Below, in pieces: positions 51,055 to 53,063 of a DNA stretch of 64,000 nucleotides. The notes below the pieces were generated by a model. The model saw nothing but the letters and a program-made list of their open reading frames with translations. It had not been told where the DNA came from and searched no databases. Position 1 is the stretch's first letter. Each line of letters begins with the position of its first letter. A program made the translations under genes and the position numbers. The stretch is from IMG/VR virus record IMGVR_UViG_2821032209_000001, positions 484 to 64,483 of that record; one strand, 5' to 3'. This DNA is from a virus. Taxonomy: Duplodnaviria > Caudoviricetes.

Positions 51055-51189
51055 GCTTGAAGTTTCGATTTCTCGATCATATGTAATGATAGCCGAAGTG
51101 CTTTGAACGTGCTAACTTACATCCGTAAGACTGATTGGAGGCAAAAAAACGCTTGCAAATGCGAACTTTTTTGCTGCATATGCGTTTTA

Positions 51190-51486
51190 ATAGCGAGCAC
51201 ACGCGAGCAGACTGGATTCTCGAAAGGTGAATCTGGAAAGCCATTCGAAGCTGCAATTACTTGCTTGCGAGTAAATTGGAGCGTGTTCTTAACATCTAGA
51301 CCTTTGACATCGTCCGGCCGGGCGTCTCACTGGTGGTTGTTACGATCCGTAGGTGTGAAGAGATAGGTTGCGGGTGAATATTCTGCACAATCTCGTTGTT
51401 CGAAAGGCAAGCACGAATTCCTGCTGTAGGATTAAATCCATGGCAAAAAAATGGGCTGGTGTCGCAAATAGCGCACCAGCCTTTTT
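51190..51486 (+). ncRNA. Candidate structured non-coding RNA
   Basis: TTGCAA-N17-GCATAT promoter-like site at 51153-51181, several hairpins (two with GAAA loops), terminator at 51445-51486. Confidence 0.35.
51445..51486. terminator. Bidirectional intrinsic terminator
   Basis: A run, GGCTGGTG...CACCAGCC, T run. Confidence 0.7.
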
Positions 51487-51487
51487 G

Positions 51488-52372
51488 TTAATGCCCGATC
51501 ACATAATCGTTAGGTGCGATGTTGACGTGAGTTTTCTTTGGTGGGCTGCCATCGCCGTGGCAGTTATGATAAAGTGGTCTTAGTTTACCTTTGACGGGGG
51601 TGCAGTCGTAATGAAAGCAGTGATCGTAAGCCCCGCCTAGCCGACTTCGAGCATTCAATAAACATTCAACACTGTGTTGTTTAGCTGAACTATTACGCAG
51701 ATACCCGTGACGATCATTTCCCGGGCTTTTGAAAAAATGGACCCCATCACATAACGCGCGCTTCTGCTCATCAGGTGGTGTTTTCCAAGGATGTTTCGCG
51801 ATGAAATTTGCTATTGCATCACTCAACAGCTCATCTGGATCGGCACAATATGTCACCTTTTCGTATAAATTTTTCAACATATGGCGTAGATCGTCCCCCT
51901 GAAAATTTCGAACAGGAAGAAGTAGTGGGTTAAGATTATGAACGTTTGTTTTATGTGTTACGCGACTTGATACATCTCTTAAGCGTTTACTTGCTTTAAT
52001 CACATCGGAAGTAAAGTCGTTCAGTATTTTGTTTTTTTCAATGGCATTTTTTGCTGATTTAACATCAGGAACCGTCAATCGATGGGGTAAGGCAAACGGA
52101 AAAAACCTTTCCAAGAGTTGATCTGTGCTTTTGTCATTGTAGTCTGCATACAACAATAAGGTTACGATTTTTTTGTTCTCTTGCCGTTCTATATAATAAT
52201 CGAACAATTGATTGATAATCTTTTCGGCATGATTAGGATCGTAACTACCTTCCCATTTATTGGGAGTGATGAATAGTCTACCTCCCGGAGCGATCTTTTG
52301 CGCGGCTTCTTTTCGGAGCCGATCAAAAAATGAAACGGGAAGTCCGGCGATGACAAGGGAATAGTCCGTCAT
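51488..52372 (-). CDS. Unknown 294-aa protein with a His/Cys-rich C-terminus (low-GC island)
   Basis: DRHG...HSVECLL...FHYDC...HNCHG...THVNIAPND. Confidence 0.75.
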   Translation of the reverse strand: MTDYSLVIAGLPVSFFDRLRKEAAQKIAPGGRLFITPNKWEGSYDPNHAEKIINQLFDYYIERQENKKIVTLLLYADYNDKSTDQLLERFFPFALPHRLTVPDVKSAKNAIEKNKILNDFTSDVIKASKRLRDVSSRVTHKTNVHNLNPLLLPVRNFQGDDLRHMLKNLYEKVTYCADPDELLSDAIANFIAKHPWKTPPDEQKRALCDGVHFFKSPGNDRHGYLRNSSAKQHSVECLLNARSRLGGAYDHCFHYDCTPVKGKLRPLYHNCHGDGSPPKKTHVNIAPNDYVIGH

Positions 52373-52391
52373 GATCGATCGTCCAACTTCG

Positions 52392-53063
52392 CTATACGTT
52401 CTTGTTCATCAAAGCAACTATCACGTCCATGGGTAATGAGACCGTCGCCAATTGTCGCTTATCAAGCGCATCTACTATGGCATGCAATAACGTTCTCTGA
52501 TGTCCAAATGGAGATATATGCGTTCTAGGTTTAGATAAGAATTGCTCTGTTTCAAGTTTATTATCTTCGATCCAACTAATTATCTTGGAGTAAATAACTT
52601 TATCTCTGTCGTTAGATGTGTCAGGCGTTATATATTCACTATCGATTGCGACATACGAAGGCGAAGGCGGCGCATCGACGTCCTCAAATGTAAAATCATC
52701 GAGATTGACGAAACGCCTCGATCCTACTACCGGAACTGAGAAGGCGGCCCAGAAACGATAATTGAAACGAAATTTTCGGTCTTTTTTTTCAGTTGTCGCA
52801 TCAGTAATTAAACTTGCCAATTCTTGACTATTTCTTTTTATAAGAGATTGAATATTCCTAAACTGCCCCGTGAAAATTATTTCGTATTTGTCCGAAAAAC
52901 GTTTTCTCACAAAATTGGCCAGACTTTTCTCTTCTTTTTTAATCGTCTGGAGGTCTGAGCCAATATCCATGCCCAGCTTACTGAGAAGGTAAGGTTGACC
53001 GGTACTTAATTCAGCATCTGCCAAGGCCTCTATTTTCGATGCGATTCTTGAAAGTTCGTCCAT
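52392..53063 (-). CDS. Unknown 223-aa protein with an OST-HTH/LOTUS-like N-terminus (low-GC island)
   Basis: PYLLSKLGMDI...KSLANFVRKRFSDKYEII resembles the LOTUS winged helix. Confidence 0.7.
   Translation of the reverse strand: MDELSRIASKIEALADAELSTGQPYLLSKLGMDIGSDLQTIKKEEKSLANFVRKRFSDKYEIIFTGQFRNIQSLIKRNSQELASLITDATTEKKDRKFRFNYRFWAAFSVPVVGSRRFVNLDDFTFEDVDAPPSPSYVAIDSEYITPDTSNDRDKVIYSKIISWIEDNKLETEQFLSKPRTHISPFGHQRTLLHAIVDALDKRQLATVSLPMDVIVALMNKNV

Follow-up and report, generated by a model that had tools for sequence, protein, structure and literature searches.

The B-A cassette and its convergent RNA

The stretch of DNA analyzed here (the window) comprises 64,000 nucleotides (nt), positions 484 to 64,483 of the Caudoviricetes record IMGVR_UViG_2821032209_000001, a provirus record of 64,483 nt that is rated complete by CheckV, and it carries at 51150-53063 a cassette consisting of two protein-coding genes, here designated B and A, together with a structured noncoding RNA (ncRNA) that is read towards them from the opposite strand. 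The two intact open reading frames (ORFs) are located on the minus strand in the order B then A and are separated by 19 nt, while the GC content is 0.35-0.47 over 51000-53250 and about 0.60 in the flanks, so that the AT-rich two-gene operon described in the initial annotation is indeed present. About 430 nt without a credible ORF lie between the stop codon of A and the last gene of the lysis cassette, and the whole cassette is internal to the prophage, being placed between the lysis genes and an exonuclease gene (Table 1).

It is very probable that the three components form a genuine tripartite module of RNA and proteins, and that the RNA represents a new family. The earlier proposal that the two genes and the structured RNA make up one unit is borne out by covariation, co-occurrence and co-inheritance. 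All three parts are without counterpart in the libraries searched (PADLOC up to 2023); the cassette is unmatched in every library searched, in agreement with the statement of the initial annotation that no named system could be recognized.

Structure and conservation of the RNA

The intergenic stretch of about 300 nt that had been singled out as apparently non-coding is conserved in seven homologous loci (69-84%), with which 51143-51413 shares 84, 82, 79, 79, 72, 71 and 69% DNA identity, while the A proteins of these loci are 38-64% identical in amino acids (aa); the non-coding stretch is better conserved in DNA than the cassette genes are in protein. It contains no ORF common to the homologues, and of the 177 runs of insertions or deletions by which these differ from the window, 153 have a length not divisible by three; both findings speak against a coding function. 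RNAalifold, applied to eight sequences in an unfitted MAFFT alignment, predicts 58 pairs, 31 of which show a compensatory double change. A covariance model built from the same eight sequences (model 1) gives 30 matches in the 45 sources collected, and the resulting alignment of 26 distinct rows, which is fitted to the model and in this way favors structure, has 93.4% of its cells paired, versus 32-43% when the partners are slid by 1-3 columns. Double changes are found in 42 of the 58 pairs among these 26 distinct homologues, and none of 500 shuffles of the alignment attains any of the observed pairing measures. The RNA is under strong selection for secondary structure. The folding energy is -57.1 kcal/mol for the plus strand versus -39.6 kcal/mol for its complement, and the plus strand is rich in G-U pairs; because of this better folding and the many G-U pairs, the RNA is taken to be read convergently to the genes.

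The predicted transcript runs from about 51188 to about 51480 and is thus about 290 nt long, with a folded core of about 240 nt. The fold is a closed junction, in which helix P1 followed by P2 surrounds three arms (P3, P4-P5 and the long P6-P7), and is followed by P8 with a variable insert and by a conserved tail. The alignment also has invariant single-stranded stretches. The insert of P8 and the loop of P3 differ in sequence and length among close relatives, the scaffold being fixed, and as read from the alignment these variable parts are short self-paired hairpins.

The hairpins listed in the initial annotation can be placed within this fold. GGATTC/GAATCT is P3, which is supported by compensatory changes, and TTACT/AGTAA is P5, which has compensatory support as well, except that the stem as originally written leaves a loop of 2 nt and the supported helix is one of 5 bp with the loop GCTTG. 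The closing stem ACACGC/GCGTGT is not confirmed: only 85.4% of cells pair, and one pair is broken in five of eight sequences. For the same 5' strand, GGTGTG at 51353-51357 is a partner that fits in 100% of cells. The "second CGAAAG hairpin" does not form locally and represents the 3' strand of P1 (51397-51402, paired with 51194-51199) plus the conserved tail.

Some further elements of the RNA are worth recording. The CACGC strand at 51200-51206 has two possible partners of the GUGUG type, one at 51282-51287 that fits most sequences and one at 51353-51357 that fits all eight, which may point to an alternative conformation. The 4-nt center of P7 (51311-51324) is self-complementary in nearly all clade-1 homologues (GGCC, GCGC or UGCA), so that the whole tip is a perfect palindrome, which could serve for RNA dimerization or as a dimeric protein site. 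The hexamer GCTTGC occurs both in the -35 region (51151-51156) and in the P5 loop (51263-51268), and its complement GCAAGC in the tail (51407-51412). A candidate pseudoknot joining the loop of P5 (GCUUGC) to GCAAGC in the tail has a 5-bp core that is invariant on a reading of the alignment made without a formal count, and a sixth pair that covaries in loci L006 and L044 and is mismatched in L016, L022 and L036. Antisense pairing of the RNA to the start region of A, as estimated by a crude RNAduplex calculation over eight loci, gives z values from -3.1 to +1.8 with no common site.

The RNA has the control elements of an independent gene in prediction. The TTGCAA (51153) and GCATAT (51176) hexamers pointed out initially are present with a gap of 17 nt, and most of the 22 clade-1 loci shown have a -35-like element of the CTTGC/CTTGA type 35-40 nt before the point at which the model begins, CTTGC(A/C) being presumably a fit to the alphaproteobacterial -35 consensus. 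The promoter is absent from the output of a generic sigma-70 scan. The bidirectional terminator at 51452-51479 was likewise correctly described, with -25.8 kcal/mol on the plus strand, -23.0 kcal/mol on the minus strand and U-runs on both, and the homologous loci shown have a GC-rich hairpin between the 3' end of the RNA and the stop codon of A. The predicted promoter and terminator in the sense of the RNA appear to be conserved.

Searches of Rfam 15 give no match to the RNA, either over 50900-53400 of the window at E<=10 or at the RNA positions of five homologous loci at E<=0.1; a P26 sRNA match of 15 bits (E=6.6) lies over the terminator and is taken as chance. Tandem Repeats Finder reports for 51000-53300 only a 12-nt repeat in two copies inside gene B and none in the RNA. 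The literature search found nothing on A, B, their locus tags or the RNA, and a preprint on ncRNA mining (10.64898/2026.09.22.753630) deals, in the part of it available, with other RNAs.

Table 1. Features of the cassette, helices of the RNA and neighboring genes in the window
Feature	Position	Strand	Details
Gene B	52392-53063	minus	223 aa; first gene of operon
Gene A	51488-52372	minus	294 aa; second gene of operon
Structured RNA, conserved core	51181-51417	plus	Alignment folding; covariance-model match at 236 bits
RNA-gene promoter	51153-51181	plus	-35 TTGCAA 51153-51158, 17-nt spacer, -10 GCATAT 51176-51181; A-tract before it
Intrinsic terminator, bidirectional	51452-51479	both	Common to RNA (plus) and B-A mRNA (minus)
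P1 (outer helix)	51194-99 / 51397-402	plus	
P2	51200-11 / 51346-57	plus	
P3	51212-16 / 51232-36	plus	
P4	51250-55 / 51277-82	plus	
P5	51259-63 / 51268-72	plus	
P6	51287-307 / 51327-45	plus	
P7	51311-15 / 51320-24	plus	
P8	51360-64 / 51390-94	plus	
GCAAGC within the conserved 3' tail	51407-51412	plus	
Endolysin	upstream of cassette		phrog_181, E=6e-58
Rz-like spanin and small conserved protein	upstream of cassette		
Phage DNA-repair exonuclease	downstream of cassette		phrog_704, E=4e-101
HNH endonuclease	downstream of cassette		
Nucleoside deoxyribosyltransferase-like gene	downstream of cassette		

A second RNA subfamily

Loci whose A protein is only 25-33% identical to that of the window are missed by model 1. 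These loci have their own conserved non-coding stretch in the same place, with 72-86% identity among nine loci, and a second covariance model (model 2) was trained on these nine. The second subfamily has 41 pairs, 15 of them with double changes, and 93.7% of its cells pair, versus 35-54% with slid partners; of five measures, four lie beyond all 500 shuffles and the fifth is attained by 27 of them. It has elements like those of the first subfamily, namely a CAUGUG closing strand, a CUUGCG hairpin loop, a GC-rich palindromic hairpin and a CAAG tail. Because of these similar elements, and because L044 is matched by both covariance models, the two subfamilies are read as one family, modeled here in two parts; model 1 alone does not reach the second subfamily. 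Model 2 gives matches at the expected place and strand at L012 (E=9e-10), L013 (E=8e-4) and L008 (E=0.05 with default filters and 5e-3 with filters off), as well as on an Escherichia coli IncFII plasmid (E=2.7e-4).

Co-occurrence, co-inheritance and distribution

The 45 sources include three duplicates (L040=L001, L041=L015 and L042=L002) and three near-identical pairs (L025/L007, L026/L020 and L034/L028), and L042 has no sequence downstream of A, which leaves 44 sources evaluable for the RNA. In 42 of these 44, the RNA occupies the expected place on the expected strand: 27 by model 1 at E<=1e-20, then L009, L044 and L012, the nine training loci of model 2, L034, which is counted via L028 as their downstream 450 nt are identical, and finally L013 and L008. 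The two sources without an RNA match are L029 and L037, the latter of which has only 256 nt downstream. Wherever there is a match, the RNA lies downstream of A on the opposite strand, in the homologous loci as in the window. A homologue of B lies directly upstream of A in 37 of the 39 sources with upstream sequence, 35 being detected by tblastn and two more by the B-family profile (L010, E=5e-13; L012, E=7e-10), while the exceptions, L036 and L039, are remnants with a truncated A.

Pairwise identities across 16 loci correlate with a Spearman coefficient of 0.76 for A with RNA, B with RNA and A with B (Mantel test, 0 of 2000). The two genes and the intergenic RNA co-occur and covary in other genomes, a point that the initial annotation had marked for checking; A, B and the RNA diverge in step and are inherited as a unit, though the correlation alone does not show physical interaction.

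A forward sample of 401 genomes of the class contains A in five, one of which is the known center genome. The new A loci have the RNA just downstream on the opposite strand in four of four cases (E=1.3e-50, 2.8e-9, 3.9e-6 and 8.1e-5), and B in all three that have upstream sequence. By model 1 the RNA is single-copy and beside A in four of the five A-holding genomes searched; the fifth (L012) has no model-1 match, and there model 2 matches beside A. The RNA occurs in none of 150 other genomes of the same order, neither A nor the RNA is found in 50,697 deposited phage genomes, and blastn of a plasmid collection gives no clade-1 RNA. A 16-nt motif of the RNA is found at 13 loci in viral contigs, of which two are true model matches at known module loci and 11 are chance occurrences.

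Three loci are in decay. In L004 (Rhizobium sp. G21, 5300-7230) A and B are both interrupted and the RNA is matched by model 1 at E=2e-78, while L036 (3204-3636) and L039 (690-1060) have only a 3' fragment of A, with RNA matches by the same model at E=2e-43 and 4e-49, respectively.

Protein A

A word-indexed search returns 67 relatives of A, and a profile search 685 cluster representatives at E<=1e-3, 203 of them at E<=1e-30, the clusters being defined at 50% identity. The best 150 of the 685 representatives are 123-339 aa long, mostly about 290 aa, and the source annotations of the relatives of A and B all read "hypothetical protein". The clusters of histidine, cysteine and aspartate residues noted initially in the 294-aa protein are present, and 97-100% of 184 A-family sequences retain each of eleven residues (H222, H233, C237, R244, H254, D256, C257, C271, H272, N284 and D289). 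Judged by this conservation, the eleven residues have the profile of a metal center with a catalytic site, and the invariant cluster would bind metal, with a likely structural zinc site plus a catalytic site. A is presumed to be the effector of the cassette and may most likely be a nuclease or another hydrolase; residue conservation is the one basis of the reading of A as a metal-dependent nuclease, which was put forward in the initial annotation. The pattern H..H...C, HxDC, CH and N....D fits no canonical motif that can be named.

In the confident AlphaFold2 model of A (predicted local distance difference test score, pLDDT, of 92.6; predicted template modeling score, pTM, of 0.90), an N-terminal alpha/beta domain of Rossmann/flavodoxin-like type is joined through a long stretch of linking helices to a small domain at the C-terminus, which bears the invariant residues. 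Foldseek finds no match to A in PDB or BFVD at E<=1e-3, the N-terminal domain giving only generic Rossmann/flavodoxin-like matches, including a weak likeness to the Argonaute MID domain, and the sequence profile of A finds nothing in PDB below E=0.25. Neither a Pfam or NCBIfam profile match to HNH or His-Me finger nucleases nor a structure of the beta-beta-alpha-metal type in PDB or BFVD at E<=1e-3 is obtained for A. No fused or longer form of the C-terminal domain turned up in the size range of 516-2000 aa, although this evidence is weak, and an Atlas search with A gives no usable match. Neither A nor B has a match above chance in Pfam, NCBIfam, PADLOC or PHROGs, and PDB and BFVD likewise yield none for either protein. 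The candidates set aside are the PADLOC models Csn2 (E=0.0088) and Cyclase (E=0.0042), both at chance level with about 13 bits each, Pfam DUF7427 (E=0.028), which is below the family cut-off and taken as chance, and the PHROG matches, which all have E>=0.055 and are also taken as chance.

Protein B

B has 30 relatives. Its N-terminal domain is winged-helix-like, its middle domain carries the invariant motif R99..Y102.FWAAFSVP111, and the protein ends in a helical tail; the AlphaFold2 model (pLDDT 85.9) shows three small domains. Compared with PDB folds, the N-terminal domain has weak winged-helix matches of the MarR/ArsR type (best E=0.2), and the pattern of helices and strands in the model is compatible with a winged helix, while no LOTUS entry is among the PDB fold matches listed. 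The 223-aa protein had been called LOTUS-like, and this assignment finds no support in family searches: none of the 30 family members matches PF12872 at E<=1, and B of the window has no Pfam match. An Atlas feature search with B returns an OST-HTH cluster at a score of 0.77, which is below the counting level and leaves LOTUS as a sub-threshold lead, and otherwise unnamed clusters of about 250 aa.

The variable slot and other neighborhoods

With an exonuclease probe, 25 related prophage loci (L065-L089) were fetched, 19 of which have the gene order lysin-spanin-p127 ... exonuclease, with p127 being 89-97% identical. The distance between p127 and the exonuclease block ranges from 244 nt (empty) to 3495 nt, and the GC content is 0.44-0.55 versus 0.58-0.61 in the flank (18 slots, without L075, which is equal in size to L074 and L076). 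A and B are absent from the slot in all 19 of these prophages. Among the 51 ORFs called in the slots, 50 were scanned (one L076 duplicate was dropped), and PADLOC gives matches to cll, PD-Lambda-2_C (two models), REase_MTase_IIG, beta and PDC-M04A in one ORF each, while the Pfam matches are HSDR_N (2), PRC (2), DUF3825, Beta_protein, SocA_Panacea, DUF3892, DUF3800, DUF6161, DUF5104 and BrnA_antitoxin. DUF3825, found in one slot ORF, is presumably often fused to OST-HTH. Most of the slot ORFs are unannotated, and the signal for defense or toxin-antitoxin genes is modest.

The slot, which varies in length, is low in GC and differs in content, is thus a hypervariable cargo site of this prophage family. 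At 51055-53295 of the window it is filled by the cassette, and in related prophages by other cargo, some of it of toxin-antitoxin and defense type; it is a good place to find further systems. P2 and P4 prophages have hotspots of antiviral systems, according to the accessible portion of the paper describing them (PMC9122126), and as far as that portion extends, the slot is similar in that low-GC cargo, some of it of defense or toxin-antitoxin type, differs among related prophages between conserved genes, but it belongs to another phage family and host group, and it is defined here from 19 loci by sequence alone.

Around 18 other module loci, 138 ORFs were scanned, among which there are integrases (4), phage-type DNA methylases (3), helix-turn-helix regulators (3), VapE (2), resolvases (2) and cyclases of the type found in cyclic oligonucleotide-based antiphage signaling systems (2). 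A-family proteins with 26% identity are encoded by 16 plasmids of Klebsiella, Enterobacter and E. coli and by one Synechocystis plasmid. The E. coli plasmid NZ_CP019904.1 (L051, 5570-12424) has in order a short B-like ORF, A, an RNA match, an IS110 transposase, an AAA ATPase and a helicase, the last two being a pair which is presumably Gabija-like. At 135 aa, the B-like ORF lacks the middle domain of B but retains the domain at the N-terminus and the tail at the C-terminus; it is detected by the B profile at E=6.8e-5 and by hhalign at E=0.0012 with a probability of 19.5%. This plasmid variant occurs in two of 5426 complete E. coli genomes. In a Nitrosomonadales metagenome-assembled genome (L011, 4291-4639), the gene for RNase P RNA (RF00010, 313 bits) is found about 600 nt upstream of the cassette, a neighborhood that may be an integration site.

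Possible function and alternative explanations

The cassette is best read as a self-contained and horizontally mobile unit made of the B-A operon and a convergent RNA of about 290 nt, which would be transcribed independently from its own promoter and ended at the hairpin common with the B-A mRNA. Being highly structured, the RNA is probably stable, and it may form a ribonucleoprotein (RNP) with B, whose winged-helix-like domain would bind it, and/or with A. The His/Cys/Asp/Asn center of A would bind metal and hydrolyze nucleic acid or nucleotide, an activity that the RNA would either restrain or license, and the trigger would be the loss, cleavage or remodeling of the RNP in infection, or the loss of the element. 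Given such an RNP, a metal-dependent effector A and control by the RNA, the cassette would act as an anti-phage module (of abortive-infection or toxin-antitoxin-like type) or as an addiction module, from which the lysogen benefits. The chances that the function is indeed one of defense, toxin-antitoxin or addiction are even, the basis being the context of the slot. A broader proposal, which is tentative and falls somewhat short of an even chance, is that the folded RNA is the core of a new class of RNA-protein conflict systems, in which a junction RNA of about 240 nt senses infection or gates or activates the metal enzyme A together with the partner B, and which has spread on prophages and plasmids in Alpha-, Beta- and Gammaproteobacteria and is unrelated to CRISPR, retrons, type III toxin-antitoxin systems and OMEGA.

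Several observations weigh against a function in conflict. A and B have no match above chance to the 5027 PADLOC models (up to 2023), and neither fold nor family searches point to A as a nuclease. The defense context amounts to guilt by association: only six PADLOC families are matched, each in one of the 50 slot ORFs, and around the other loci ordinary or mobile-element genes predominate, among which no third gene recurs. The RNA, which is highly structured, convergent rather than upstream and free of repeats, is unlike known RNA antitoxins. It is also well conserved beside broken or truncated A and/or B in L004, L036 and L039, so that it may have value without the proteins.

The persistence of the RNA at these three loci, where it outlasts the decaying genes, fits a phage-side RNP for counter-defense or regulation, in which the RNA would be a decoy, a sponge or a regulator (of host defense, lysogeny or superinfection), the proteins would stabilize or load it, and the phage would benefit; the predicted promoter of its own and the place of the cassette inside a complete provirus, between lysis and DNA-metabolism genes, agree with this. 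Such a role is nevertheless improbable, as the same cassette is found on conjugative plasmids, some loci have ordinary metabolic neighbors with no phage genes tallied, and the cassette is absent from the 50,697 deposited phage genomes. The RNA might alternatively be the substrate or cofactor of A in a cassette for RNA maturation, modification or repair, where B would be an RNA-binding adaptor and the process served would be phage or host RNA metabolism rather than immunity, loosely as in Ro60/Y-RNA/RtcB modules. The tight co-inheritance of the RNA with the proteins, its stable-looking and elaborate fold with invariant single-stranded stretches suited to protein recognition, the winged-helix-like N-terminus of B and the Rossmann-like N-terminus of A, with its weak likeness to Argonaute MID and flavodoxin-like domains, all agree with this explanation, which is nonetheless rather unlikely: neither A nor B resembles TROVE, RtcB or any ligase, kinase or methyltransferase family, and the sporadic occurrence of A (five of 401 genomes) and the hypervariable mobile-element slots fit conflict systems better.

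That the variable P3 loop and P8 insert set the specificity of A as a nuclease in RNA-guided or RNA-specified targeting would explain why these parts vary among close relatives on a fixed scaffold, and the putative catalytic metal center of A is consistent with it. The variable parts, however, are short self-paired hairpins, the RNA has no repeats and there are no arrays, no similarity to guide-dependent nucleases of the RuvC/HNH type is found, and the cassette is single-copy and not transposon-like, all of which makes this option distinctly unlikely. Finally, the conserved stretch might act as DNA (a recombination site, an origin or an operator) or be an unrelated neighbor and not an RNA partner, as the palindromic tip of P7 could be a site for a dimeric protein and GCTTGC recurs in the promoter and the P5 loop with its complement in the tail. 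This is very hard to reconcile with compensatory changes across eight helices, G-U pairs on one strand only with a strand difference of 17.5 kcal/mol, a conserved promoter and terminator of the same sense, and the fact that the stretch is never found apart from the genes in the genomes and viral contigs searched, and it is accordingly most improbable.

Comparison with known RNA-protein systems

Type III toxin-antitoxin systems (ToxIN, CptIN and TenpIN) pair an effector with a dedicated ncRNA on mobile elements, have a terminator between the two and often act by abortive infection. The cassette is like them in having a protein effector (presumed here) paired with a dedicated ncRNA on mobile elements, a terminator lying between the two. 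It differs in that its RNA is one folded unit of about 240 nt without tandem repeats and lies downstream of A on the opposite strand, the RNA of type III systems being upstream and in the same direction, and in that there are two proteins, neither of which matches a model of the ToxN/AbiQ/CptN/TenpN type (Pfam, PADLOC) or a PDB entry. Retrons and defense-associated reverse transcriptases comprise a structured ncRNA, which is essential, a reverse transcriptase and an effector, and occur on prophages; the layout of an RNA plus two proteins on a prophage is shared, but neither ORF of the cassette has a reverse transcriptase-like domain, and there is no Rfam match of the msr/msd type.

In bacterial Ro60 (Rsr)/Y-RNA modules, a structured RNA gene of about 100-250 nt lies beside the gene of its binding protein, sometimes on phages. 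The cassette similarly has a structured RNA gene adjoining protein genes, but it lacks a TROVE or vWA domain and a Y-RNA-like Rfam match, and A has an apparent catalytic His/Cys/Asp center. OMEGA systems (IscB/IsrB/TnpB with omega RNA, including HEARO RNA) combine, on mobile DNA, a large structured RNA with a nuclease-like protein that is about 300-400 aa long, the RNA being on the same strand at the transposon end. Here too, a large structured RNA is linked to a putative nuclease-like protein of similar size on mobile DNA; the differences are that no RuvC or HNH domain is detected in A or B, that the RNA of the cassette is on the opposite strand, that the cassette is present in one copy per genome and not in a transposon, and that there is no HEARO match.

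To our knowledge, there are few large structured RNAs that show strong covariation and have no assigned function, and those tied to dedicated proteins, such as CRISPR RNAs, retron msr/msd, omega RNAs and bridge RNAs, have each given new biochemistry and often a tool. The RNA family described here is locked to two protein families without detectable relatives in the domain and structure libraries searched, and the A family is sizeable (685 clusters) and mobile-element-borne, with a divergent version on plasmids of Escherichia, Klebsiella and Enterobacter. If the cassette does serve defense or addiction, it would represent an RNA-dependent mechanism of a new type, and if it does not, it would probably still be a new RNP whose enzyme and RNA fold are both without known match.

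Other features of the prophage

A second low-GC insert on the minus strand (47516-49150) is located just ahead of the lysis genes and encodes an acyltransferase matching Acyl_transf_3 (E=1.5e-28) along with a DUF982 protein whose gene has 94-95% identity in three related prophages (L065, L079 and L086). The only tRNA gene of the window is a tRNA-Met with anticodon CAT (25968-26044). At 57570-59327, inside the provirus record, the minus strand carries two genes with Ku domains in tandem (Pfam Ku, E=1e-43 and 2e-47).

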